A stretch of DNA of 64,000 nt, from the IMG/VR virus record IMGVR_UViG_3300046096_000525, positions 4,002 to 68,001 of that record; one strand, written 5' to 3'. Positions 2,485 to 36,267 of the stretch are shown piece by piece; positions within the stretch are counted from its first letter, which is position 1; every line of letters starts with the position of its first letter. The stretch is from a virus. A program made the translations under genes and the position numbers. The notes beneath the pieces are model-generated. The model was not told the DNA's origin. It ran no database searches and worked only from the letters and a program-made list of their open reading frames with translations.

Positions 2485-2793
2485 TTATAAATTATTCCAT
2501 TTATTTTTTGGGCACATATTCTCAGGGTCTTCTTGAGAACTTTTAAAAATCAAATTGCATGTACAAACTGTACATATTGCATCATCTGTTACCTTAACTC
2601 GCATAATAAAATTAAGTATCTTATTAACTCTGTACATCAATAATGTTTTTATTGAGTGATTTTTATCATTATCAGAATTAAATGGGCACTTCCTGCAAAA
2701 CTCAAGTCTTTTTATTTGCAAGTCAGTTAACTCTGAAGAGTACTCTAACCTACTTTTTATAGCTAAGTATGGTATTTTAAATATACTTCTCAT
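2485..2793 (-). CDS. hypothetical Cys-rich protein (CxxC...CxxC zinc-ribbon-like)
   Basis: ORF track; CRKCPF...CTVCTC pairs of cysteines. Confidence 0.4.
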   Translation of the reverse strand: MRSIFKIPYLAIKSRLEYSSELTDLQIKRLEFCRKCPFNSDNDKNHSIKTLLMYRVNKILNFIMRVKVTDDAICTVCTCNLIFKSSQEDPENMCPKNKWNNL

Positions 2794-3241
2794 GGTCTTT
2801 ATTATGTATTGTTTCTAAAATTTTCCAATATTTATAAAAGGAATGCATTATGTTTTTTTCAACATTCTCTTCTTTTTTTCTTATTGATATAAATAATAGA
2901 GGCTTATTAAAATTCTTTATGTCGTTACCCTCAGGTTTTTTAAGGATCTCTCTCAGATACTTAAGCTTGTCTGACAAATACTTATACTTCTTTGTCTGCC
3001 CCTCCTTACTGGCTAAGGCACAACCCCCTAAGTAATAATTAAACCTCATCTTTCCAAGATTTGGAAAATTTATAAGTACTAGCTCCTCATTTGATAGAAT
3101 AGCCTTTTTTAGATAAGATATGTTATGCTTGAGTATGTCCCTTAATAGTTTTACATCCTTACCTGTCCTAGATGATAACTCCTCTAGAATGTCATCTGTA
3201 AAACAAATTGGTTTATCAGGGTTTTTGGAAGGCGAGTACAT
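2777..3241 (-). CDS. hypothetical protein (154 aa)
   Basis: ORF track; minus-strand operon. Confidence 0.5.
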   Translation of the reverse strand: MYSPSKNPDKPICFTDDILEELSSRTGKDVKLLRDILKHNISYLKKAILSNEELVLINFPNLGKMRFNYYLGGCALASKEGQTKKYKYLSDKLKYLREILKKPEGNDIKNFNKPLLFISIRKKEENVEKNIMHSFYKYWKILETIHNKDHEKYI

Positions 3242-3982: not shown

Positions 3983-4029
3983 AAGTTAAAAAAATAATTA
4001 ACAAATTTGGAAAATAGAATTATTATTTT

Positions 4030-6982: not shown

Positions 6983-7444
6983 ATGTCAGTATTTAATTGG
7001 ATACATAATGGTCACGACATCAATAGTCTGCCAGATATGCAAAAACATTGCCCCAAAGTATGGGGCTTTGTTTACAAGCTAACGTTATATAAAAAAGGAA
7101 CACGAACTGTAGAGTTTGAGTACATTGGGAAAAAGAATGTGTACACAAAAAGGAAAAGAGTGTTTGGTAAAAAAGAAACAGCTGCCTTAAACGACAAAAG
7201 AAAAAAATCTTACGAGTACGTTATAAAGGAATCCGATTGGAAAAAGTATGTTTCTAGTAATAAGTTCATAAAAGCGAATAGTTCTCAGTTCGATATCTCA
7301 AGAGAGATTCTAACTTTTTGTACTAACGACTATGACTTAACATATCAAGAAGCAAAAGAGATTATTTGCTCCGGGGCCTTAGAAGATTGTAGGTTTTTGA
7401 ATGACGGAGTTTCGATTAGAAGATTTGGTAAAAAAATAATATAA
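6983..7444 (+). CDS. hypothetical protein; weak GIY-YIG-like motif (possible free-standing homing endonuclease between recA and phoH)
   Basis: WGFVYKLT...(15 aa)...EYIGKKNVYTKR resembles GIY-(x)n-YIG-(x)8-R; spacing longer than canonical, no conserved His seen. Confidence 0.4.
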   Translation: MSVFNWIHNGHDINSLPDMQKHCPKVWGFVYKLTLYKKGTRTVEFEYIGKKNVYTKRKRVFGKKETAALNDKRKKSYEYVIKESDWKKYVSSNKFIKANSSQFDISREILTFCTNDYDLTYQEAKEIICSGALEDCRFLNDGVSIRRFGKKII

Positions 7445-7448
7445 CACT

Positions 7449-8135
7449 ATGCAAACAGCAAGGGAAAAAAGAGTTCCAGTAAAACCAACGAGGGCTTTGA
7501 AGAATGATATTAAATACAAGATAACTCTTGACGAGGATCAAAAAAGAGTAAAAGAATCTATTTACAATAGCGAGCTTATAGTTATAACAGGCTATGCTGG
7601 ATCAGGTAAGTCTTTAGTAACAGCCCAGTCTGTATTAGACTTAATATTCAAAAAAGAAGTTACCCAAGTTTTTGTAACGAGAGCTGCAGTTGAGGTTGGT
7701 AAGTCCCTTGGATTTTTACCTGGAGAATTAGACTCAAAGTTTGATCCATACATAGAAGCCTTTAGAGATAACCTTTATAAGTGCTACGATAAGGATAAAG
7801 TAGATAAGCATATAAAGGATGGTCAAATACAAGGGTTACCTGTTCAGTACATTAGAGGTAAGACCATTGACCAAGGCCAAGTGCTTGTTGTAGAGGAAGC
7901 TCAGAACTTAACAAAGCACGAAATGCTAGCTATTTTAACCAGGCTAGGTAAGGGGGGTAAAATTATTATCAATGGAGATAATGAGCAGAGTGATATAAAA
8001 GAGAGTTATACCGGTTTACATTATGCTATAGACTTGTCAAAAGCTATTGCAGAAATAAGTTGGCACAAGCTTAAGTCTAACCACAGATCAGAGTTAATTT
8101 CAAAGATATTAAACTACGAACACAATAAAAAATAA
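7449..8135 (+). CDS. phoH: PhoH-like P-loop ATPase
   Basis: Walker A GYAGSGKS, Walker B-like VLVVEEAQNLT, overall PhoH-family layout. Confidence 0.8.
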   Translation: MQTAREKRVPVKPTRALKNDIKYKITLDEDQKRVKESIYNSELIVITGYAGSGKSLVTAQSVLDLIFKKEVTQVFVTRAAVEVGKSLGFLPGELDSKFDPYIEAFRDNLYKCYDKDKVDKHIKDGQIQGLPVQYIRGKTIDQGQVLVVEEAQNLTKHEMLAILTRLGKGGKIIINGDNEQSDIKESYTGLHYAIDLSKAIAEISWHKLKSNHRSELISKILNYEHNKK

Positions 8136-8152
8136 ATTATTTTTATAAAAAA

Positions 8153-8184
8153 TTTGGTAGTTTAAAATATTTTTTGTACCTTTG
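8153..8184 (+). promoter_or_regulatory. sigma-A-type promoter TTTG(8153-8156)-N20-TACCTTTG(8177-8184)
   Basis: Consensus match; 20 nt upstream of small ORF ATG 8205. Confidence 0.5.
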
Positions 8185-8204
8185 CATAGAAATTAAGAAA
8201 TACT

Positions 8205-8339
8205 ATGAGTAAAGAAGTAGAATTCACTTATTTTCTTAACGGAAAAGAAGTAGAAAAGGAAAATGTCGATTGGGATAAAGAGACAACTGTAAAAGTTGTT
8301 GACAATGATGTTTTCATAACACAAAAAGAAAAAGAATGA
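8205..8339 (+). CDS. small hypothetical protein (44 aa)
   Basis: Own read: ATG 8205 after promoter; TGA stop overlaps next ORF start (ATGAGTG at 8336); below ORF-track length cutoff. Confidence 0.3.
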   Translation: MSKEVEFTYFLNGKEVEKENVDWDKETTVKVVDNDVFITQKEKE

Positions 8340-10624: not shown

Positions 10625-12163
10625 ATGTTAAAAATAGGAAAAGAGGCAAAAGAATCTCTTATCAGGGGTATTAACGTAGTATCAGATGCAGTCAAGACAA
10701 CGATGGGGGCAGAAGGTAAGACAGTTATTATCGAGAATAAAATGGGATTCAAACCTCACATTACTAAAGATGGGGTAACAGTAGCCGAGAGTATCTTACT
10801 AGAAGATGCTTACGAAGAGATTGGTGCCAAGTTGATCAAAGAAGCCGCAAGAAGAACGGTTGATTTAGTAGGAGATGGTACAACTACAGCCACGGTTATC
10901 ACACAAGAGTTGATAAACAGAGGTTTAGAGAAACTAGAATCCGGAGTATCACACGTAGAGTTAAGAGAAGGTATGGCTATTGCAATCGAAGATGTAAAGC
11001 TTGCCCTGAAAGGCTTGAAGAAAGAGGTTGGTGAAAAAGAGGTAAAGCAAATAGCTACTATCTCTGCAAATAATGATGCCGTAGTAGGAGAAATTATAGC
11101 TGACGTATACAAGAAGATTGGCGTAGAAGGAACGGTTGATGTACAAGAAGGTGTAGCAAAAGACACTACAGTTAATTACATCGAAGGTATGTCACTAGAT
11201 AGAGGTTGGGCTTTGCCACACTTTGTATCTGACACAAGTACCGGAACAGCAGAACTTAATGACACTTATATCTTGATCTACGATGGTAAGATCAATGCAG
11301 TAAACGATATTGCAGAACACGTAAGAAAGGCCCAAACAGAAGGTAAAGGATTGCACATTTTTGCTGAAGATTTAGACGAAGGTGTTATGACAATGCTTGT
11401 CAAAAGTAAAATGCAAGGTACATTCAGAGTTACCGTTACTATGAACCCAGATTTTGGAACCAATAGAACTAGTATCTTAGAGGACCTAGCAATATTTACT
11501 GGAGGAGAAGTTTTCACGCCTAAGTTCTCTACAAAAGTAGTACTAGGACATGCTGCAAAAACAATCTCAGACAAAAGTAGAACAGTTATAATTACAGATA
11601 CCGGAAGCCAAGAGCTTTTAGACAGAATTGAAGTGTTAAAAACTCAAGTTGAGAACACAGAAGACGTTGTAGACAAAGCTAAACTGGTAAAAAGGTTGTC
11701 AAACTTGAGAAATGCCGTGGCTATTGTAACAGTTGGTGGAGTTACCGATCTTGAAGTTAAAGAAAAGAAAGATAGGATTGATGATGCTGTTAGTGCTGTA
11801 CGATCTGCACTAGAAGGTGGATTTGTTGCCGGTGGAGGATCAACTTTATTATATATTTCCAAGTACAAAATGAAGAAAAAGCTGAAAGGCGGCCAAAAAG
11901 ATGGATATGAGTTGTTGAAAGCAGCTATCCAGAAGCCTTTTGAGCAAATTTTGTTGAATGCTGGGTTAGACAAAGACAAATACGAGCCTAGACTTAGAGT
12001 TTACGGTAAAGGTATCAATGTCAAAACTAGAAAAGTAGAAAATTTACTAGAAAGAGGAGTTATTGACTCAGCTAAAGTAGTAGAAGTTTCTTTAGAGAAT
12101 GCTAATTCAGTAGCCTCACTAGTACTACAAACAGATTGTATAATCACAAGTGCCGGACTATAA
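10625..12163 (+). CDS. groEL: GroEL-like chaperonin (Cpn60 family)
   Basis: DLVGDGTTTATVITQ matches GroEL AGDGTTTATVLA motif; VAGGGSTLLY ~ GroEL VAGGG; length 512 aa with equatorial/apical layout; lacks GGM C-terminal repeat. Confidence 0.8.
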   Translation: MLKIGKEAKESLIRGINVVSDAVKTTMGAEGKTVIIENKMGFKPHITKDGVTVAESILLEDAYEEIGAKLIKEAARRTVDLVGDGTTTATVITQELINRGLEKLESGVSHVELREGMAIAIEDVKLALKGLKKEVGEKEVKQIATISANNDAVVGEIIADVYKKIGVEGTVDVQEGVAKDTTVNYIEGMSLDRGWALPHFVSDTSTGTAELNDTYILIYDGKINAVNDIAEHVRKAQTEGKGLHIFAEDLDEGVMTMLVKSKMQGTFRVTVTMNPDFGTNRTSILEDLAIFTGGEVFTPKFSTKVVLGHAAKTISDKSRTVIITDTGSQELLDRIEVLKTQVENTEDVVDKAKLVKRLSNLRNAVAIVTVGGVTDLEVKEKKDRIDDAVSAVRSALEGGFVAGGGSTLLYISKYKMKKKLKGGQKDGYELLKAAIQKPFEQILLNAGLDKDKYEPRLRVYGKGINVKTRKVENLLERGVIDSAKVVEVSLENANSVASLVLQTDCIITSAGL

Positions 12164-12410
12164 TATGAAACCACTATTTCAAAGAGTTCTACTAAAAGTA
12201 GAAGTATTAAAGGAAGCCGAGTTATTCGGTGAAGAGCAAGATAAACCAAAAGTATACCTTGTTGATAAAGCAGATGACTGTCACGAATCTTTGCATAACC
12301 TATTAAATAGTCAAGTACTGTTTAATGGTGTTATTGCCGAGGTGGTAGAAGAGACAGAGGAGCATAAATTAGTATTAACTCACGAGACAAACCTTTTGAT
12401 GTCTTACTAA
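12150..12410 (+). CDS. groES: GroES-like co-chaperonin (Cpn10 family)
   Basis: MKPLFQRVLLKV ~ GroES IRPLHDRVIVKR; C-terminal KLVLTHETNLLMSY ~ EVLIMSESDILAIV; 86 aa; immediately downstream of (overlapping) GroEL-like gene. Confidence 0.6.
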   Translation: MPDYNMKPLFQRVLLKVEVLKEAELFGEEQDKPKVYLVDKADDCHESLHNLLNSQVLFNGVIAEVVEETEEHKLVLTHETNLLMSY

Positions 12411-12508
12411 AATCCCCTATAAACAACACAAGTTAATAGTCCTGTCGCTGTTGGTATACCCAGCAGTTCTGAATCCAGCCAAAAGGCGTAGGCGGTGTTA
12501 AGGTACAG
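12411..12508 (+). ncRNA. GC-rich structured RNA segment (5' flank of low-complexity ORF); contains GCGTAGGCGGTGTTAAGGT resembling tRNA acceptor/D region
   Basis: Local GC well above the window's AT-rich background; hairpin CTGTTGG-TATAC-CCAGCAG; shares GTTAAGGT box with 13106-13116. Confidence 0.25.
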
Positions 12509-12874
12509 GTGGCTGTAGGGTCAAATCTAAAAAATAAACATATCATGAATTCATCATCATTAACAGGAAGTACTACTTCTATCAGTGGTTATAGCACCAA
12601 TAGTTGTAACACTTTAGGTTCAAGCCTAACACTAACACCAAACACAATTTATTATCACGGAAATCAAAACCAAATGAGACAAGTAAAAGCAGTACTACTT
12701 AAAGTAGTAAAAGACCCAGAGACAAACGCTATTATAGACTCTACTGTAGATCTAGAGTTTTGGGTAAAACAAAAATCAGATGTGTCTTTTGAACTAGCAG
12801 CTATGAGCCAATTAGGTAGAGTGATAGATCCAGAAACAGAAGTATTAAAAGAGATATACTCGATATACTTATAG
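12509..12874 (+). CDS. questionable ORF (GTG start in track; first ATG at 12545); S/T-rich low-complexity N-half
   Basis: ORF track; embedded between two GC-rich structured RNA segments; no nuclease motifs (GIY-YIG/HNH/LAGLIDADG) seen. Confidence 0.25.
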   Translation: MAVGSNLKNKHIMNSSSLTGSTTSISGYSTNSCNTLGSSLTLTPNTIYYHGNQNQMRQVKAVLLKVVKDPETNAIIDSTVDLEFWVKQKSDVSFELAAMSQLGRVIDPETEVLKEIYSIYL

Positions 12875-13186
12875 GAAAAAGCCCTCTGCTGGTGCACCAG
12901 TATGGATCGAAGATGGGGATTACTGATACGATTGAAATAAAAACCTCTTCGGAGTTATCGTATAGGCGAGGAAGCCCACCGGAACGTAGGCCGGCACAGT
13001 TATAGCTCTGGGGATATTTGAAAAGCTATAAAAATTGGGGGCAGGGTAATATTGTTTGAGAGGTCAAAGGACAGAACTGAACCTGGACAGCCCCCATAAT
13101 ATTGCGTTAAGGTGTAATGGTTGCATGGAACTCTCATAAGGTTCACGGGGTGGTTCGATTCCACAGTACGCTACTAATTTTAAAGT
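12875..13186 (+). ncRNA. GC-rich structured RNA with nested helices and tetraloops, ending in a tRNA-like 3' module (anticodon arm GAACT-CTCATAA-GGTTC at 13127-13143; T-arm GGTGG-TTCGATT-CCACA at 13148-13164)
   Basis: Hairpins CTGGTGCACCAG, ATACGAT..(CTC-TTCG-GAG)..ATCGTAT, CCGG-AACGTAGG-CCGG, GGGGGC...GCCCCC long-range pair; CAU anticodon loop and canonical T-loop but no clean acceptor/D-arm. Confidence 0.3.
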
Positions 13187-13459
13187 ATGAGAGATAGTTA
13201 TATCAGAATGAGAAATTCCGGAAACTTGGATATTAATTGGTTCTTTAAATATTTCAGGCAAGAGGGAGGGAATGCAGATCCAAGTCTATTTTATGAAGCC
13301 TTTGAGTATGAAAGAATAGACAAGATAGAAGTTCCAGGGGGGTATATGGAAAATAAGATACCTAGAAAAAAAGAGGAATTAATACAAAACATGGATAGGA
13401 AGTTTGGATTGACTATCCTGTATGATCAAAACGGTAAATTTTTAAAAGTAGTAGACTAA
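13187..13459 (+). CDS. hypothetical protein (90 aa)
   Basis: ORF track. Confidence 0.45.
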   Translation: MRDSYIRMRNSGNLDINWFFKYFRQEGGNADPSLFYEAFEYERIDKIEVPGGYMENKIPRKKEELIQNMDRKFGLTILYDQNGKFLKVVD

Positions 13460-13460
13460 A

Positions 13461-13706
13461 ATGGCAGCAGTAGAAGCAATCAAATTTTCAGCAACATGGT
13501 GTGGACCATGCCGAGTAGTAGGTAAAGCTCTAGAAGGAGTAGACTTAAAACAAGTAGACATTGACACAGACGTTGATGGATTAGCAAAAGAGTACAATAT
13601 CCGTAGTGTACCTACAATAGTATTTGTAAAAGACGGCCAAGAGGTAGCAAGACATGCCGGACTTATTACTAAAGCAGAGTACGAAACTAAACTAGCCTCT
13701 TTGTAA
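13461..13706 (+). CDS. trxA: thioredoxin
   Basis: WCGPC active-site motif at residues 13-17, 81 aa, thioredoxin-fold length and C-terminal pattern. Confidence 0.8.
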   Translation: MAAVEAIKFSATWCGPCRVVGKALEGVDLKQVDIDTDVDGLAKEYNIRSVPTIVFVKDGQEVARHAGLITKAEYETKLASL

Positions 13707-13707
13707 G

Positions 13708-14394
13708 ATGATTAATATTTGGAAAGGTAAGAAATACCTAAAGTTAGAGCATTGTACATCCCCATGGTATACCACAAACAGAGGAAAAGACTTCTGCTTA
13801 AAGCATCATTTTACAGTATGGGGTTGGTCCCTAGCTACTAGAATGGTAAAGAGAGGATATAAAGAAGAGTACGTAAGAAAAGCAGAGTACGTATTTGGGC
13901 ATGTAAGTCCAGTACTTACTAAAAAGTATGATGCAGTAGATAAATATGAAGACCATCTAGACTTATTCTGCAAGACAGATTACCCAACACTGTACTGTTA
14001 CAATATTGAGGGAGATTTGCTAGGAAGAATAGACGACCTTAAGTGGATGTTCACCCATAACTGTGTAGCTGATAAAAATCTAGCAGGTGTGGCCTACTCT
14101 CAGACAGAGGGAGGATATATAGGATACTCACACAGAGCAAGACAAATATTCAAGATAGGGGACAAACTGTTTGACCCTAAGTACGAGCCACAAGAATTAG
14201 ACTATGAAGAGTGGGAGTGGGCAGGATTCTTACAAGACCAAGTAAGAGTACAGAAAGAGCATAACGATCTAGGAGAAGAGTACATTGTACCTATCAAAGA
14301 TGTAATACCTTTCAAGAAAAGAGGATCTGTACTTATCAAGACCCCTAAGGAAGCACGTAAAGCAGCACATAATTTCTCTAAGTATGTTAGCTAG
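13708..14394 (+). CDS. hypothetical protein (228 aa)
   Basis: ORF track. Confidence 0.5.
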   Translation: MINIWKGKKYLKLEHCTSPWYTTNRGKDFCLKHHFTVWGWSLATRMVKRGYKEEYVRKAEYVFGHVSPVLTKKYDAVDKYEDHLDLFCKTDYPTLYCYNIEGDLLGRIDDLKWMFTHNCVADKNLAGVAYSQTEGGYIGYSHRARQIFKIGDKLFDPKYEPQELDYEEWEWAGFLQDQVRVQKEHNDLGEEYIVPIKDVIPFKKRGSVLIKTPKEARKAAHNFSKYVS

Positions 14395-14617
14395 TATATT
14401 AGAACAGTACGAAGACGAAGAGTTCTTGATAGCCGATGGATTTAATCAAGCTGTAATAGGTGTAGAAGAGTCTACAATGAGACTGATCTATTCTGTCAAT
14501 AAGTGTATAGAGATATTAACAGAGGATATGTCAGAGGAAGATGCAATAGAGTACTTCAACTATAATGTCCTTAGAAGCTATGTTGGAGAGAAGACCCCAA
14601 TATGGTGTAACCCATAA
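14384..14617 (+). CDS. hypothetical acidic protein (77 aa)
   Basis: ORF track. Confidence 0.45.
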   Translation: MLASILEQYEDEEFLIADGFNQAVIGVEESTMRLIYSVNKCIEILTEDMSEEDAIEYFNYNVLRSYVGEKTPIWCNP

Positions 14618-14637
14618 GCACCACAAACCAAAAACCA

Positions 14638-14663
14638 CCCCGGAGAGATCTGGGGTTTTTTTT
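14638..14663 (+). terminator. rho-independent terminator CCCCGGA-GAGA-TCTGGGG + T8
   Basis: 7-bp GC stem with GAGA loop followed by TTTTTTTT, 21 nt after stop of 14384..14617. Confidence 0.7.
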
Positions 14664-14835
14664 ATACCCCCCCACCCTTTTATACCCTAGTGATTTAGTA
14701 GGGATTATAAATTTTTTTATATCAATTTTTTAAAACTGATTTTATGTGGGGGACACCCTAACCACCATACAGAAAACCCCGGCAAGATTCGGAGGATTTT
14801 ACCCCACCCCCCCTATGTGTCCAGCCAGATTACTT

Positions 14836-14851
14836 TGTGCCTTAAACAGCC
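14836..14851 (+). repeat. 16-nt repeat TGTGCCTTAAACAGCC (copy 1; copy 2 at 35881-35896)
   Basis: Exact 16/16 match (17-18 with flanking T/G) in two non-coding regions. Confidence 0.6.
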
Positions 14852-15375
14852 TCTAAAAGTTTTTGACTTTTCCAACTTATTTTTATACTATTTGTCTATA
14901 GTATGTTAGTATGTTATAGTGTTAGCTTATACTAGAGTGTAGTCCTGTCCAGGTGACTAGGTTCTAGGCCAGCTTATTTAGACTAGTTACATATAATATA
15001 ATTGTTAATAACTTTCTACATTTTTATTTGTGTATTAAATTCTTTTTACAGGTCGCCAAAAAATACCCCTATTTTGCTCCTGTTGCATTATCTCAGAGTT
15101 TTAATGTTACGATATCATGGAGGGGTTATCGTGTCTTAAATCGCTTTATTTAGCCTTATATGATAATCCTTTGCGAAGCCCCGAAAACACTAGGATAAAA
15201 AAATATTTAAACTTTTTTACATAAACGCTTGTTTATATCATATATAGTTGTATATTTGCAAAGGGTTAGAGAGAAAGGCACTAGCTTTTTACCTAACTAG
15301 CTGATTATCAGCACGTTCCTTGAAATACTGAATACTATCTTACAAGGCTAAGCCAGTAGGCCTAAGATTACCGGC

Positions 15376-15384
15376 ACTCTCACA
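15376..15384 (+). promoter_or_regulatory. ACTCTCACA box 9 nt upstream of ATG 15394
   Basis: Member of recurrent AACTCTCACA-N1-9-ATG motif (five copies 15376-18426). Confidence 0.4.
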
Positions 15385-15393
15385 TTATATACT

Positions 15394-15633
15394 ATGACAA
15401 ATTTTGAAGCAATTAACAAGTTCATGTACTTCGCCCACAACTTCGGTTACAACTTCATTGAAGAAGTTTGGAAATCCGAGCCTAACATGGCAAACCACTT
15501 AAGAAGTAAGTTCAACAGCTACGCCCAACAGCAAGGCAACGGGACAAACGGGTTCTTCAGGTGGTTTATGGAGCTAGACAACGGCAACAAAGAAACGTTG
15601 ACCGATTGGATTGGAGCAAATTACAAAGGATAA
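15394..15633 (+). CDS. hypothetical protein (79 aa)
   Basis: ORF track; preceded by CTCTCACA box, followed by GC hairpin. Confidence 0.5.
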   Translation: MTNFEAINKFMYFAHNFGYNFIEEVWKSEPNMANHLRSKFNSYAQQQGNGTNGFFRWFMELDNGNKETLTDWIGANYKG

Positions 15634-15642
15634 ATTAACCAA

Positions 15643-15660
15643 GCCCCTCGCAAGGGGGGC
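15643..15660 (+). terminator. GC hairpin GCCCCTC-GCAA-GGGGGGC (intercistronic; weak U-tract)
   Basis: 7-bp GC stem; followed by TATTT then AACTCTCACA box and next ATG. Confidence 0.45.
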
Positions 15661-15665
15661 TATTT

Positions 15666-15675
15666 AACTCTCACA
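15666..15675 (+). promoter_or_regulatory. AACTCTCACA box 2 nt upstream of ATG 15678
   Basis: Recurrent motif. Confidence 0.4.
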
Positions 15676-15677
15676 TT

Positions 15678-15863
15678 ATGAATAAGACTTATTACCACAT
15701 TTTAGAGTACGGAAGCTACGGGGAAGTAGGTTACCAAGGCTATTACCTAACACTAGAGGAAGCTAAACAGGAAGTTGCTCATTTATATGACTGCTTTCCT
15801 AATTCGGATTTTCAAGTTGAACCCTCTAATAGTAAGAGGGAGCCTGTTAACGTAACAATTTAA
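15678..15863 (+). CDS. hypothetical protein (61 aa)
   Basis: ORF track. Confidence 0.45.
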   Translation: MNKTYYHILEYGSYGEVGYQGYYLTLEEAKQEVAHLYDCFPNSDFQVEPSNSKREPVNVTI

Positions 15864-15872
15864 ACTCTCACA
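15863..15872 (+). promoter_or_regulatory. AACTCTCACA box 2 nt upstream of ATG 15875 (overlaps previous stop)
   Basis: Recurrent motif. Confidence 0.4.
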
Positions 15873-15874
15873 GT

Positions 15875-16192
15875 ATGAACGCAAAAAAATTTCCGATAGG
15901 GGTTCAAAGGAAGATTGACACTATCAACGCAATGATTGAAAGCATAAACGAGTCAGAAGTTGTACCTTACACTTATGCAGGTGGTACTTGGCCTTATGCA
16001 GTTTACATCAAGCCTATAGTTATTAAGAACCAATTCGTCACCATCGAGGGCGGTAAGTACGGGACTTATATTGAAGGCAAGGAAAGGTATAATGTTAACA
16101 AGGTCTCCACATTTGGGGACGATTACTGCAGGAAACATCTAGAGTACACTCTAGGGATTATTCTGAAGACATTCAAGAAGACATTAAACTAA
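15875..16192 (+). CDS. hypothetical protein (105 aa)
   Basis: ORF track. Confidence 0.5.
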   Translation: MNAKKFPIGVQRKIDTINAMIESINESEVVPYTYAGGTWPYAVYIKPIVIKNQFVTIEGGKYGTYIEGKERYNVNKVSTFGDDYCRKHLEYTLGIILKTFKKTLN

Positions 16193-16201
16193 TACTAATC
16201 A

Positions 16202-16219
16202 GCCCCTCGAAAGGGGGGC
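16202..16219 (+). terminator. GC hairpin GCCCCTC-GAAA-GGGGGGC (intercistronic)
   Basis: 7-bp stem, GAAA loop, followed by TTAATC. Confidence 0.45.
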
Positions 16220-16321
16220 TTAATCTAAACATCATGAAATATTTTTTACAGCATCAGAAACCGCAAATCATTTTTTGTATTATTGTAGCACTTTATTTTC
16301 TAACTAGATTTTTATACTAAC

Positions 16322-16549
16322 ATGAAGACACTAACAGAAATCCAGATTGAAGCCCACAAGTTGTACATGCAACTTGAGCTAGGACCTTTTTTTAATACTT
16401 ACCACGATTGGATGTATGACCTACTGCAGGAGATTGATTACCTGGAGGAGGATGATGAAGAGGATTATAAGACAGCAGAAGACATTCTAACAAAATGCAA
16501 GGCTCTGATCAAAGCACAAAAAATATTACTAACAGCAAACCTAAACTAA
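16322..16549 (+). CDS. hypothetical highly acidic protein (75 aa; EEDDEEDYK)
   Basis: ORF track. Confidence 0.45.
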   Translation: MKTLTEIQIEAHKLYMQLELGPFFNTYHDWMYDLLQEIDYLEEDDEEDYKTAEDILTKCKALIKAQKILLTANLN

Positions 16550-16716
16550 GCTATGCGAAACCTAGAAAATTACATTGTACATTGTCCAGTTGAAAACATC
16601 CAGTGGGATGAGTACGACAGACCTTATGAGCAAACACCAAATGGTAAAATAATGCTCTCGATCAAATCCGGAACTCTCCAGACAAAGATCAAAACCAGAA
16701 ACGTTTAATTAATAAC

Positions 16717-16734
16717 CGGCCCTCTACGGGGGGC
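16717..16734 (+). terminator. GC hairpin (CCGGCCCTC-TAC-GGGGGGC), intercistronic
   Basis: GC-rich stem followed by TTAATA then ACTCTCACA box. Confidence 0.35.
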
Positions 16735-16739
16735 TTAAT

Positions 16740-16748
16740 ACTCTCACA
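16740..16748 (+). promoter_or_regulatory. ACTCTCACA box 2 nt upstream of ATG 16751
   Basis: Recurrent motif. Confidence 0.4.
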
Positions 16749-16750
16749 CA

Positions 16751-17152
16751 ATGAAAAAAAGATTAGATTGCCAGATGGGTAAAAACCTAAAGATGTCTCC
16801 TGAAACGTATGCATTAAGAACTCAGGTGATGGGTCACGTATACGAAGCTAAGAACCTGTTGAGGTCTCAAGGTATCCAGATGGATCGGGTTGATGTAAGG
16901 ATCACTGATGACTCCGGTAACGGTGCCCTGGGCATGGCGAGATTGAATGACAGGATCATATGGATTAGCTTGAGCAGCCTGAAGCGATGGAAAGCACACC
17001 TCAGGGTCGTAGTATTCCATGAGCTGGTCCACACTCTCACAGGATTTGAGCATGATGACAATTGCCGTCTAATGTGTCCCTGTGTGAAGATCCGACCACT
17101 GGATGAGCAGGAGACTAATAAGTTATTCCTGAAGTACTTCACCAAAAGATAG
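16751..17152 (+). CDS. putative zinc metallopeptidase (HExxH; ImmA/IrrE- or SprT-like)
   Basis: VVVFHELVHTLTGFEHDD: HELVH plus downstream acidic ligand candidates; 133 aa. Confidence 0.45.
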   Translation: MKKRLDCQMGKNLKMSPETYALRTQVMGHVYEAKNLLRSQGIQMDRVDVRITDDSGNGALGMARLNDRIIWISLSSLKRWKAHLRVVVFHELVHTLTGFEHDDNCRLMCPCVKIRPLDEQETNKLFLKYFTKR

Positions 17153-17160
17153 TATTCAAC

Positions 17161-17190
17161 GCCCCTCAAAAAAATGGGGGGCTTTATTTT
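17161..17190 (+). terminator. terminator GCCCCTC-AAAAAAAT-GGGGGGC + TTTATTTT
   Basis: 7-bp GC stem followed by T-rich tract. Confidence 0.55.
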
Positions 17191-17210
17191 GTTTATTAAA
17201 AAATTATTTA

Positions 17211-17218
17211 TATATTTG
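17211..17218 (+). promoter_or_regulatory. -7 box TATATTTG with downstream conserved leader (CCGGCAACGGTGCC...CTAAAAACC)
   Basis: TAnnTTTG match 36 nt upstream of ATG 17254. Confidence 0.45.
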
Positions 17219-17253
17219 TACCGGCAACGGTGCCACACTAAAAACCTTATATC

Positions 17254-18021
17254 ATGGTAGCAAATTTAAACACCAACTTATTCCCGATCATTTCAGTAGG
17301 CATGTACTGCAGTTCATTAGATCCGGATTACATCTTTGATAGTTACATGATCAACCAGGATCACCAGGAAGGTCATATAAACTACGACAGTGAATACTTT
17401 CATGAAAACTTCAGAAACGATCTTTATGTTGCTGCGGTCCAGCAGGTAGCTCAGAACTATCTAGACGGTGCTCATGAGGCAGACGGTATTGAAATTGAAA
17501 TCACTGCTGGAGACATCTACAGTCCTTCGGCTTATAACTTTGCCACTGATCAGATAGAGCTAGCAGTTAAATTTAATAAGACCCGTGTTAAACAGTATGC
17601 TGCAGCTAATGCTGATGAGTTTGACCAGTTCCTACATGATCACTTTACCAGCTATGACGGCTTCCATAGCCACACAGCTAATAACTACTACGCCTGGAAG
17701 GAAGACTTCGCTGATAACAATATCCAGAGCATCGGAGCTGTATTGACATTTATATTCCGTGATGAGATAGAAGACATCCAGAACGGCTTCCTAGATGCCT
17801 GCTATGGTGACCTGTATTACTCTGAGTTCGTAGATACTACAGAACTGGATGAGTCTGTCGCTGAGGTAATACAGTATGTCAGAGATAACTATCAGACCCT
17901 GGATGTAGATCAAACTTTCTACAGTGAATTTAGCCATCTGGATCCGGACCTAGTTCTTAGAACCATGAAACTAGAGATAGATAGAATCGCCAGCCACGTC
18001 TTAGAACTGGAGCTAGCTTAA
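17254..18021 (+). CDS. hypothetical highly acidic protein (255 aa; D/E-rich, aromatic-rich)
   Basis: ORF track; composition reminiscent of DNA-mimic proteins (inference only). Confidence 0.55.
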   Translation: MVANLNTNLFPIISVGMYCSSLDPDYIFDSYMINQDHQEGHINYDSEYFHENFRNDLYVAAVQQVAQNYLDGAHEADGIEIEITAGDIYSPSAYNFATDQIELAVKFNKTRVKQYAAANADEFDQFLHDHFTSYDGFHSHTANNYYAWKEDFADNNIQSIGAVLTFIFRDEIEDIQNGFLDACYGDLYYSEFVDTTELDESVAEVIQYVRDNYQTLDVDQTFYSEFSHLDPDLVLRTMKLEIDRIASHVLELELA

Positions 18022-18034
18022 TAAATACTAATTC

Positions 18035-18054
18035 GGCCACTGTAACAGGTGGCC
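18035..18054 (+). terminator. hairpin GGCCAC-TGTAACAG-GTGGCC
   Basis: Perfect 6-bp GC stem 14 nt after stop; weak U-tract. Confidence 0.4.
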
Positions 18055-18318
18055 TTAAATAACACACAGACATGATAGTATATTTGATCATTACAGGAAT
18101 ATCAATAATGACTCTAAGAGCATTGCAAAGATAGATCACCATGGTAGAGATAGAAATTTTAGAGTTCGGTTTTATGGCAACTATCTTTAAGGGAGGGGTT
18201 GCAGTAGGGGAATTGTTAGGGGTTACATTAGATAACCTACAACAAAGTTTACTACAAGTTTACGATATCAATTTATATAGTACATATAGTTTAAATTAAG
18301 TGTGAGAGCTTATTTATG

Positions 18319-18349
18319 GGAGGGGGGAGCGAAAGTTTCCCTCTTTTTT
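18319..18349 (+). terminator. terminator GGGAG-CGAAAGT-TTTCCC/CCCTC + T7
   Basis: G/C-rich hairpin followed by TCTTTTTTT. Confidence 0.55.
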
Positions 18350-18383
18350 TATGCAAATATTTTTTTTATACCAAACTATTTTG

Positions 18384-18426
18384 TATATTTGTATTGGCAA
18401 TGAAGCCAAGCTAAAACTCTCTCACA
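18384..18426 (+). promoter_or_regulatory. -7 box TATATTTG (18384-18391) + conserved leader GGCAATGAAGCCAAGCTAAAA (18396-18416) + AACTCTCTCACA box (18415-18426)
   Basis: Shows the CTCTCACA box sits in the 5' leader downstream of a canonical promoter, directly before ATG 18427. Confidence 0.5.
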
Positions 18427-18666
18427 ATGATAAGACAATTTATTTTAAAAGAAAATGTATTGACCGATAACATCCTACAAGTGCCTAGCAAAGGTAAAGT
18501 ATTCAGTGGGGGTTATATTGCTTTGATTAAGGAATATCAATATCAAAACCCTTGGATGGATAAAGAAACAATAAAAAGGTTTAGAAGCAAAGATAGATTG
18601 AATGCATACCTAGACAAACATTATTCAGAAGCGGATTTAGATTTTTATGATACTTGTATAGAATAA
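18427..18666 (+). CDS. hypothetical protein (79 aa)
   Basis: ORF track. Confidence 0.45.
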   Translation: MIRQFILKENVLTDNILQVPSKGKVFSGGYIALIKEYQYQNPWMDKETIKRFRSKDRLNAYLDKHYSEADLDFYDTCIE

Positions 18667-18690
18667 GGGGGGGCGAAAGCCCTCTTTTTT
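18667..18690 (+). terminator. terminator GGGC-GAAA-GCCC (G-rich extended) + T7
   Basis: GAAA tetraloop hairpin right after stop, followed by TCTTTTTTT. Confidence 0.55.
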
Positions 18691-18961
18691 TATGCAAAAT
18701 AATTACTAAAACACTTGCGTATGTAAATTCTTTGGCGTATCTTTGTTTTAACAAAAGGGGAAAGGTATGGATGAATTAATTAAATAGGCGGAAGGATTTG
18801 ACAAAGGGCGTGGTTTTGAAATAGAACCGGAAGAGTAGACTCCGTCCTACCTTATAGTGAGTGGTTGGGGAGGGGAACGTTTGGGTAAAGATACGAAAAA
18901 AATCAATACAAAACAAATAAACTTATCAACACAAAATTGTTAATAACTATTTAAAATAAGC

Positions 18962-18993
18962 CTTGCATATATGAAACTATTGGCGTACATTTG
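18962..18993 (+). promoter_or_regulatory. sigma-A-type promoter CTTG(18962-18965)-N20-TACATTTG(18986-18993) with leader TTGCAACGAAGCAG
   Basis: Consensus match 43 nt upstream of ATG 19036. Confidence 0.5.
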
Positions 18994-19035
18994 TCTTGTA
19001 ATTGCAACGAAGCAGTTACTTAACCTTATATTATT

Positions 19036-35746: not shown

Positions 35747-35783
35747 CGAAATGATTTGTTGATATATTATTGAAATTGAACAA

Positions 35784-35813
35784 GACGGGGCTTCGATGCC
35801 CCCACCTCCACAA
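35784..35813 (+). ncRNA. ssrA: putative tmRNA acceptor piece 3' module (T-arm GGGGC-TTCGAT-GCCCC + acceptor 3' strand CACCTCC + discriminator A)
   Basis: GACGGGGCTTCGATGCCCCCACCTCCA parallels the conserved tmRNA 3' end (E. coli GGACGGGGGTTCAACTCCCCCCAGCTCCACCA); true 5' boundary of the acceptor piece (P2 partner TTATTG ~35770) uncertain. Confidence 0.45.
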
Positions 35814-35880
35814 AAGTTTCCTTGAACTATAAACAAGGTGGTGGAGTCGCTGAGAAATCAGAGACCTAGGCTTTATCGGT

Positions 35881-35896
35881 TGTGCCTTAAACAGCC
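35881..35896 (+). repeat. 16-nt repeat TGTGCCTTAAACAGCC (copy 2; copy 1 at 14836-14851) inside the presumptive excised loop of the permuted tmRNA precursor
   Basis: Exact repeat. Confidence 0.6.
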
Positions 35897-35904
35897 GGTG
35901 TCAT

Positions 35905-36046
35905 GGGGGTGACAGGTATTGATTGGCAATAAGTAGGTAATAGGGAGAATTAATTTCAAAACTAAACGACAACGTTTACACACTTGGTGGGGTGCAAAAA
36001 AGATTTGCAGCCTAACACGCCTTAGGGGAGCGAAATCCCCTAAATT
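35905..36046 (+). ncRNA. ssrA: putative tmRNA coding piece: 5' acceptor strand GGGGGTG (pairs 7/7 with CACCTCC incl. G3-U70), tag reading frame 35944-36015 (GELISKLNDNVYTLGGVQKRFAA-stop), 3' hairpin GGGGA-GCGAAA-TCCCC
   Basis: 5' end GGGGGTGACAGGTATTGATTGG resembles tmRNA 5' GGGGCUGAUUCUGGAUUCG; tag frame opens right after a UAG, begins GE (as Bacteroidetes tags GENNYALAA) and ends AA; CAATAAG complementary to upstream TTATTG (P2-like). Confidence 0.45.
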
Positions 36047-36120
36047 GGACTTATAGCTCAGTTGGTTAGAGCAGTGCACTCATAATGCAAAGGTCGTATG
36101 TTCGAGTCATACTTGGTCCA
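36047..36120 (+). tRNA. tRNA-Met (or Ile2) with CAU anticodon, 74 nt, no encoded CCA
   Basis: Manual cloverleaf: acceptor GGACTTA/TTGGTCC (one T-T mismatch, one G-U), D-arm GCTC-AGTTGGTTA-GAGC, anticodon arm GTGCA-CTCATAA-TGCAA, T-arm GTATG-TTCGAGT-CATAC, discriminator A. Confidence 0.7.
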
Positions 36121-36267
36121 CTTAGCAAGGCATAAACGATAAGGAATACTCGTCACAGGTTTATGTTAAGTTGCAGACGGGCCGAAATGCTTACGGTTAA
36201 CGGGGCTAACTCATATAGTCCAGAGAGCAAAATCTAACGAGTGACTGATAGGAAAGACTATCAAAAT

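Follow-up and report, generated by a model that had tools for sequence, protein, structure and literature searches.

A variable island behind the chaperonin genes of a phage with a small-protein gene, a candidate structured RNA and a non-canonical tRNA(CAU)-like gene

Locus and comparative material

The region between a GroES-like gene and a downstream gene of 90 amino acids (ORF90) was analysed in a stretch of 64,000 nucleotides of viral DNA (positions 4,002 to 68,001 of IMG/VR record IMGVR_UViG_3300046096_000525; the whole stretch is called the window, and coordinates refer to it unless a relative is named). The region (12411–13186) holds a structured 5′ segment, a small-protein open reading frame (ORF), a chain of hairpins made of a 3′ extension and a further hairpin H6, and a transfer RNA (tRNA)-like gene with a CAU anticodon; all genes and RNA elements of the locus are on the + strand (Table 1). 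A preliminary description, made from the sequence without database searches, had seen here two highly structured flanks rich in guanine and cytosine (G+C) around a low-complexity ORF, and had proposed a tRNA split by a group-I-like intron, a novel large non-coding RNA (ncRNA) or an RNA-processing cassette. All sequence elements that it named were found in their places. The jump in G+C is real but modest, with 43–44% at 12400–12549 and 45–50% at 12900–13149 against 33–37% in the flanking genes.

Relatives of the locus, which carry locus numbers (L001 and so on), were gathered as 11 IMG/VR loci by a GroEL protein search (70–100% protein identity), and contigs from JGI, ENA and Logan were added through the ORF. 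For the tRNA-like gene a metagenome scan was done with the DNA pattern of its D arm, which gave 79 loci, and the base pairs were tabulated for 52 distinct sequences; the D stem is invariant in this tabulation because the D arm was the search pattern.

Table 1. Features of the locus and other elements of the window named in the text
Feature	Position	Strand	Remarks
GroEL gene	10625–12163	+	512 amino acids; ~39% identical to GroEL of Flavobacterium and Bacteroides phages
GroES-like gene	12165–12410	+	81 amino acids; start is ATG 12165, chosen to match the 81 amino acids in relatives; a longer GTG-start ORF, 12150–12410, is also in the ORF list
Structured 5′ segment	12411–12530	+	between the GroES-like stop codon and the small ORF
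Small-protein ORF	12545–12874	+	109 amino acids from ATG 12545
3′ extension (H1–H5)	12880–13035	+	~155-nucleotide structured RNA (candidate)
H1	12887–12902	+	UGCA loop; contains CTGGTGCACCAG
H2	12926–12932 with 12957–12963	+	AUACGAU with AUCGUAU, 7 base pairs; encloses CUC-UUCG-GAG hairpin, 12945–12954
H3	12915–12918 with 12975–12978	+	
H4	12979–12994	+	CCGG-AACGUAGG-CCGG
H5	13000–13007 with 13024–13031	+	
H6 hairpin	13037–13095	+	carries GCAGG-N-CCUGGACAGC
H6 closing stem	13037–13042 with 13090–13095	+	GGGGGC with GCCCCC
Non-canonical tRNA(CAU)-like gene	13103–13173	+	placed by alignment to the Rfam tRNA model
Acceptor strands	13103–13109 with 13166–13172	+	
D arm	13112–13126	+	
Anticodon arm	13128–13144	+	CAU at 13135–13137
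T arm	13149–13165	+	
ORF90	13187–13459	+	90 amino acids; next gene downstream of the island
Thioredoxin gene	13461–13706	+	
Tad6-like gene	13708–14394	+	228 amino acids; Pfam Tad6 (Type I Thoeris inhibitor), E=1.2e-13
Permuted transfer-messenger RNA (tmRNA)	35754–36015		two-piece; Rfam RF04321, 51.1 bits (gathering score 47)
Canonical tRNA-Met(CAU)	36047–36121		directly downstream of the permuted tmRNA

The tRNA(CAU)-like gene

An anticodon arm and a T arm had been recognised at the end of the region, and no canonical acceptor or D arm could at that time be folded beside them. Both are in fact local: UGCGUUA, the 5′ acceptor strand, and GUGU-AAUGGUU-GCAU, the D arm, lie upstream of the anticodon arm GAACU-CUCAUAA-GGUUC, which is present as described but has one U·G wobble and is not strictly perfect; the T arm was also located. 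The element is followed by A73 (13173) and C74 (13174), which are conserved across the family. The Rfam tRNA model (RF00005) scores the window copy at 24.0 bits, below its gathering score of 29, and the relatives fall above this threshold (32.2 in L012, 33.3 in L008) or below it (25.6 in L005, 22.5 in L034). ARAGORN calls no tRNA at the site by default and tRNA-Met(cat) only at the relaxed setting -ps80; across the family none is called by default and 60 of 66 are called tRNA-Met(cat) at the relaxed threshold. The alternative acceptor register of ARAGORN, with 7 layers and starting 2 nucleotides upstream, was rejected as it needs a distorted D arm and T arm.

Among the 52 distinct sequences the anticodon stem is paired without exception at four positions and in 47 sequences at the fifth (27-43), and all five positions vary yet stay paired, with two to seven pair types at each (28-42, for example, is GC, UA, AU or CG). 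The T stem is paired in every sequence by GC, CG or UA types; three of its four positions vary, 50-64 through all three of these types, and 53-61 is an invariant G-C. The acceptor stem is made of four invariant Watson-Crick pairs, 2-71 to 5-68, with 1-72 unpaired in 48 of the 52 (U·U or C·U), 6-67 as U·U in 51 and 7-66 (A7·N66) unpaired in 40. Every sequence has G·purine at 49-65 and A in place of U at position 8, and the local 5′ strand YGCGUUAA is conserved. Of the marks of a tRNA, the arms held by covariation, the T loop and G18G19 are thus present, and the acceptor stem of 7 base pairs and U8 are lacking. Because these departures are conserved in 52 sequences, they are to be read as a selected trait of the family and not as decay in a single genome.

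The element shares with canonical tRNA-Met(CAU), as in Mycobacterium phage GenevaB15, the common cloverleaf arms, the CUCAUAA loop, the UUCGAnU T loop, G18G19 and A73. Its nearest relatives in cultured phages are actinophage tRNA-Met genes (~77% identity) with the same GUGU-type D stem and UGCG...CGCA acceptor ends. These have a normal UGCGCGG/CUGCGCA acceptor, whereas the family here has the four Watson-Crick pairs with Y1·U72, U6·U67, A7·N66, G49·R65 and A8.

Most loci of the family are in phage arrays of ~20 tRNA genes, where the element stands between tRNA-Asp and canonical tRNA-Met as one of three CAU species. In the metagenome contigs L040, L092, L087 and L057, with arrays of 19–23 tRNA genes, these three are a 71-nucleotide tRNA-Met with a D stem of 3 base pairs, the non-canonical family member and a canonical tRNA-Met. 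The family was absent from bacterial and archaeal genomes, searched as one representative for each of 185,579 species, and gives no clue to the host from that side. An unannotated copy that shows the U6·U67 and A7·G66 mismatches of the family lies on the minus strand of the Ralstonia jumbo phage RsoM2USA (MG752970; 75520–75580, or ~75506–75580 as L119 1501–1575), directly after a called tRNA-Met. Literature searches turned up no account of the family. In L006 an HNH-type endonuclease ORF (~2750–3150) stands in place of the tRNA-like gene, and in L051 another (~13605–13840) breaks into it right after the D arm, so the family appears as a target of homing-endonuclease traffic. Judged from its sequence, the gene is a complete, contiguous, non-canonical member of a widespread and so far undescribed phage-only tRNA(CAU) family.

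The 3′ extension and the H6 hairpin

The 3′ extension is 92–97% identical in all lineages with the complete segment and is the most conserved part of the locus, the corresponding DNA identities being 80–88% for GroEL, 71–87% for the ORF and 65–80% for ORF90. When the six-helix model was applied to nine sequences, 94% of the cells were paired, against 36–45% with the partner slid, and four pairs have changed on both sides (two in H1, one in H3 and one in H5). H2, its UUCG hairpin and H4 never vary. The words "highly structured" of the preliminary description therefore rest on conservation and covariation in relatives, since the minimum folding energy is no better than that of shuffled sequence. 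The fold belongs to the + strand transcript, because the G·U pairs of H1 would turn into C·A on the opposite strand, and a DNA-level element such as an origin or pac site is disfavoured by the same pairs; the 1-nucleotide insertions and deletions of L030 and L005 leave no room for hidden coding.

The joining sequences are constant and the stems are not. H2/H3 has two versions that are unrelated but share their closing geometry, and H6 has three interior versions which keep the closing stem; H6 is absent in L033 and L035. This would suit a folded RNA in which the peripheral stems are free to vary, and near-invariant single-stranded stretches (GGAUCGAAGAU, AGGCGAGGA and the H5 loop) are found in it as well. 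The H6 motif GCAGG-N-YYUGRACAGC is often doubled and recurs with different closing stems in L010 and L057; in L057 it lies between tRNA-Arg and tRNA-Trp of a 23-tRNA array, with a covarying closing stem, which ties the 3′ part to the spacers of tRNA arrays. A loose search of IMG/VR with the H6 pattern GGGGCAGG...CTGGACAGCCCC returned only the same family and chance matches in G+C-rich coding sequence. IMG/VR scans with the 5′ segment and the 3′ extension gave no new lineages, and no copy of either segment was found elsewhere in the window, in the INPHARED phages or beyond this phage group. In L118 (~512–740) the sequence beyond GGAUCGAA of the 3′ extension is unrelated and G+C-rich, and is either foreign DNA or a chimeric assembly.

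No terminator-like site (a G+C-rich hairpin followed by a U tract) occurs in 12100–13500, so that the label of a plain intrinsic terminator or untranslated region (UTR) does not apply. From conservation and compensatory changes, the 3′ extension is supported as a candidate for a structured functional RNA of no described family; of the three earlier proposals, the novel structured ncRNA stands in this form.

It is possible, though we lean away from it, that the 3′ extension, either alone or together with H6, functions independently as an ncRNA belonging to a new class, such as an anti-defence decoy or an RNA that binds protein. Its place beside a tRNA would then be incidental, as is often so for ROOL and GOLLD RNAs, and the ORF and the 5′ segment would be its unrelated neighbours. 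The extreme constraint, unpaired stretches included, would suit such an RNA, as would the two versions of H2/H3 and three of H6 on constant junctions and the presence of a Tad6-like anti-Thoeris gene nearby. It is however dispensable in L033, truncated in L116 and L035 and restricted to one narrow phage group, and neither a promoter nor a terminator of its own was detected.

The 5′ segment and the small-protein gene

The 5′ segment is a conserved structured 5′-UTR element of ~115 nucleotides. It is present in all window-type relatives at 79–99% identity, is absent from L006–L008 and L117, and has no Rfam match. Its hairpin at 12447–12467, GCUGUUGG-UAUAC-CCAGCAGU, has 8 base pairs and shows compensatory changes from G-C to A-U in L004 and L118; CCCUAUA (12415–12421) with UGUAGGG (12514–12520) is a possible closing helix.

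The small ORF had been described as low in complexity in its N-terminal half with a GTG start. The first part of this is correct: ~41 N-terminal residues are rich in S, T, G and N, disordered, and hypervariable in sequence and length in the protein alignment. The GTG at 12509 is not conserved in the group of L004, L005 and L012. The ~65 C-terminal residues form a conserved domain. Eight homologues were found, all within this phage group, and no Pfam or PHROG family was found for the protein. In the AlphaFold2 model the mean predicted local distance difference test score is 58, with ~70–80 across most of the C-terminal part, and the disordered N-terminus is followed by a small domain of a beta-hairpin, a helix and a strand; Foldseek matched this model to one uncharacterised phage protein in BFVD and PDB together, and to nothing in PDB. 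By its conservation at the sequence level the ORF is a real, conserved small-protein gene.

Island contents in relatives

What lies between the GroES-like gene and ORF90 differs from relative to relative, and at least eight arrangements of this variable island are seen among them. It is empty in L009. L010 and L011 have a different non-coding stretch of ~290 nucleotides and a weak tRNA-Gln; in L010 (6790–7080) this stretch appears structured by eye, as a candidate, with a doubled GCAGG...GACAGC motif, and the tRNA-Gln(CUG) after it is called by ARAGORN and not by Rfam. The ORF, H6, the tRNA-like(CAU) gene and a tRNA-Cys, with neither the 5′ segment nor the 3′ extension, are found in L007 and L008, and L006 is the same with the HNH endonuclease ORF in place of the tRNA-like gene. 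The full arrangement of the window is seen in L001–L003, L004, L005, L030 and L034. L012 has it also, with a 341-residue ORF (7275–8300) added between the small ORF and the 3′ extension, which indicates that this junction tolerates large inserts. The whole 3′ structured part is deleted from L033, which keeps the 5′ segment, the ORF and the tRNA-like gene; L035 and L036 have H2/H3 swapped for an unrelated hairpin and have lost H6; H1–H3 are deleted in L116; and L117 has a variant 3′ part with H2/H3 replaced, together with the tRNA-like gene and without the 5′ segment. Because the 5′ segment and the 3′ extension are lost independently and the hairpin modules of the 3′ part are separable, they do not form the core of a ribozyme or intron.

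L012 also has, ~2.7 kilobases downstream of its tRNA-like gene (11300–11355), a sub-threshold match to a type III hammerhead ribozyme (37.7 bits, gathering score 48.5, E=1.3e-4); Rfam gave nothing at E≤1 in 13200–19000 of the window. The Tad6-like anti-defence gene of the window lies two genes downstream of the tRNA-like element. The leaders are A-rich and have no Shine-Dalgarno sequences, which hints at a Bacteroidota host. The phage has, far from this locus, a permuted tmRNA and a second CAU tRNA.

The mosaic loss of modules, the window tRNA score below threshold and the disruption or replacement of the tRNA-like gene by HNH genes (L006, L051) could also be expected of decaying junk, that is, of what is left of a tRNA array after degradation, a tRNA pseudogene included. 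We consider this extremely unlikely. The same "defects" are present in 52 distinct sequences whose other arms covary, and the 3′ extension is more conserved than GroEL; the Rfam tRNA model matches nothing inside the 3′ extension at E≤10, and BLAST matches to it come only from its own phage group.

The distal acceptor strand and the intron question

A distal strand GGCGUAG (12485–12491) had been noticed as a possible partner of the 3′ acceptor strand GUACGCU, and an 8-mer box GUUAAGGU as shared by both flanks (12497–12504 and 13106–13113). Both observations are correct, but neither exceeds chance. The distal strand forms 6 of 7 pairs in the window and 7 of 7, with G-U allowed, in L004, L005, L012 and L034; only 5 of 7 are formed in L030, L033 and L035, and L116 has the mutated form UGUGUAU. 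In none of the relatives compared have the distal and the 3′ strands both changed so as to keep a pair. By our estimate, chance alone would supply ~0.2 such partners in the 5′ segment and one to two in the 700 nucleotides upstream, and other contexts of the family show no enrichment of it, with 48 found against ~121 expected by chance. The GGC of the strand may pair locally with GCC in a small hairpin, and L118 keeps this pairing by a one-sided change of GCC to GCU (U·G). The 8-mer score is equalled by 19% of shuffles (p ~0.19), and the relatives do not conserve the box: their 3′ copy usually reads GUUAAAGU, and position 9 is A in 38 of 52. A relic duplication was considered and rejected, as local alignment of the 5′ segment with the tRNA-like gene shows only this 8-mer at the same p; RNAduplex of the 5′ and 3′ segments gave full-length duplexes only, which are meaningless.

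In the split-tRNA proposal, the tRNA(CAU) would be cut after acceptor position 7 by a self-splicing group-I-like intron of ~620 nucleotides holding the ORF, and GGCGUAG would be joined to 13110 onward. The number of pairs of the distal strand speaks for it, as do the local acceptor stem of only four Watson-Crick pairs and the position of the ORF, with the extra ORF tolerated in L012, between two structured segments. Rfam search of 12300–13300 at E≤10 gave the tRNA model and a chance-level match to a small nucleolar RNA only, with no group I or group II intron, RNase P, tmRNA, ROOL or GOLLD, and no Rfam intron was matched in six relatives at E≤5. A likeness to conserved regions of RNase P and to the R/S elements of group I introns was considered and dropped, as nothing matched at these permissive thresholds.

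Group I introns in bacterial tRNA genes (cyanobacterial tRNA-Leu and tRNA-fMet, Azoarcus tRNA-Ile) resemble the locus in that structured RNA accompanies a tRNA, here of (CAU) type with an ORF between. They lie, however, inside the anticodon loop and their exons make a canonical tRNA, whereas here the anticodon loop is intact. Relatives without such an intron should show joined exons, but L007 and L008 have the tRNA-like gene without either segment, and they and the 52 family members keep the local 5′ strand YGCGUUAA, the latter with the same mismatches and no upstream partner. Nor is there an indivisible core, with L033 lacking the 3′ core, L117 the 5′ segment, and modules deleted or swapped in L035, L116 and L117. 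The intron would also fall between tRNA positions 7 and 8, where none is known in bacteria and phages. Since the parts are separable, Rfam finds no intron and the distal strand is mutated in L116, uncompensated and at chance level, the intron reading is ruled out for practical purposes; the element is a contiguous tRNA-like gene with separable flanks.

The same strand could be used without splicing, in a topology like that of tmRNA, by pairing over the long range with the 3′ acceptor strand; an RNase P cut at 12484/12485 would then give a product of ~690 nucleotides with the ORF and a chargeable end. A full helix of 7 base pairs would replace the defective local one, with G·U at 1-72, the 7-of-7 distal strand is reported for five lineages, and the permuted tmRNA of the same genome indicates that this phage group uses tRNA-like hybrids. 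This is nevertheless highly unlikely. Besides the chance-level complementarity, the reduced pairing in L030, L033 and L035 and the mutated strand of L116, the window would have G·G at 7-66, the GGC may be engaged in its local hairpin, retained in L118, and the tRNA-like family occurs everywhere else without such a strand. Long-range acceptor pairing without splicing gains no positive support. The likeness to tmRNA, the window's own copy included, lies in a tRNA-like module in a phage genome and in the idea of an ORF within a tRNA-like RNA; tmRNA lacks an anticodon arm and carries a short tag ORF and pseudoknots, whereas the element here has a full anticodon arm, and the tmRNA of Table 1 is the only one given by ARAGORN and Rfam in the window.

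Interpretation of the island

The reading that we favour, at a little better than even chances, is that the locus is no interrupted tRNA but a small accessory island of RNA elements and a protein gene, which goes back to a phage tRNA array and is composed of four separable parts: the 5′ segment, the ORF, a ~220-nucleotide chain of the hairpin modules H1–H6 and the tRNA-like gene. The RNA-processing cassette of the preliminary description is the mechanism which we prefer and find plausible. All parts would be transcribed together with the ORF from the + strand, and host RNase P would free the tRNA-like RNA by cutting at its 5′ end. The RNA left upstream would be either the mRNA of the ORF with its 3′ end protected by stable hairpins or a separate stable small RNA, made in the way that stable RNAs are excised from phage tRNA clusters. 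The tRNA-like RNA, with its CAU loop, A73 and C74, would probably serve in decoding or act as a decoy for an anticodon-reading enzyme; it retains all that recognition of the anticodon requires. In canonical systems a 1-72 mismatch and a disturbed 49-65 pair lower the binding of EF-Tu, and an initiator-like or decoy role is therefore possible, although the family is without the three G-C pairs of bacterial initiators.

Several points weigh against the accessory island as described. Co-transcription, RNase P cleavage and the stabilising role of the hairpins are all steps that we infer, and an acceptor stem of 4 base pairs with a 1-72 mismatch may be a poor substrate for RNase P or a synthetase. 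The folding-energy z-scores against dinucleotide shuffles are +1.1 for 12875–13186 and -0.9 for 12411–12520. The covariation in the 3′ extension comes from nine close relatives in two main groups, and its four double changes are modest, being matched by 12 of 500 shuffles. The constraint on unpaired stretches goes beyond the need of a 3′ protective structure and suggests a more specific function.

A bolder and unlikely reading joins two new kinds of RNA, a phage-only tRNA(CAU) class with a special role and a structured partner RNA of ~220 nucleotides; in this lineage GGCGUAG might then complete the acceptor and make of the whole transcript, ORF included, an mRNA-tRNA hybrid resembling tmRNA. 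If this is true, the mismatches Y1·U72, U6·U67, A7·N66 and G49·R65 would mark a tRNA of initiator-like kind which escapes EF-Tu, or else a decoy that engages a host defence nuclease directed at the anticodon or acceptor.

For the accessory island there are precedents of structured RNA upstream of a tRNA or tRNA-like element in phage T4, whose tRNA cluster yields stable small RNAs (species 1 and 2), in tRNA-like signals for 3′-end processing such as MALAT1-mascRNA and in the tRNA-like 3′ ends of plant viruses. By analogy with these, to which no sequence relationship exists, tRNA-processing enzymes could set the RNA end here too. ROOL and GOLLD are large ncRNAs associated with phages and tRNAs, and are likewise conserved structured RNAs beside phage tRNA genes, but they are ~580–800 nucleotides long and the locus does not match them in Rfam.

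Significance of the locus

The comparison removes a false lead; had it been true, a bacterial-type tRNA would for the first time have been seen with an intron elsewhere than in the anticodon loop. The ~155-nucleotide RNA, which is steadier than the chaperonin gene of the phage, is a good candidate for a new structured RNA. Standard annotation misses the tRNA(CAU) family at 79 metagenomic loci at least and in one cultured jumbo phage, RsoM2USA, which offers an experimentally tractable representative. Since the "defects" of the family are conserved, they are to be regarded as functional features, and the third CAU species in the near-complete tRNA sets of these phages may be their own initiator tRNA, a tRNA-Ile2, or a decoy against tRNA-targeting defence.

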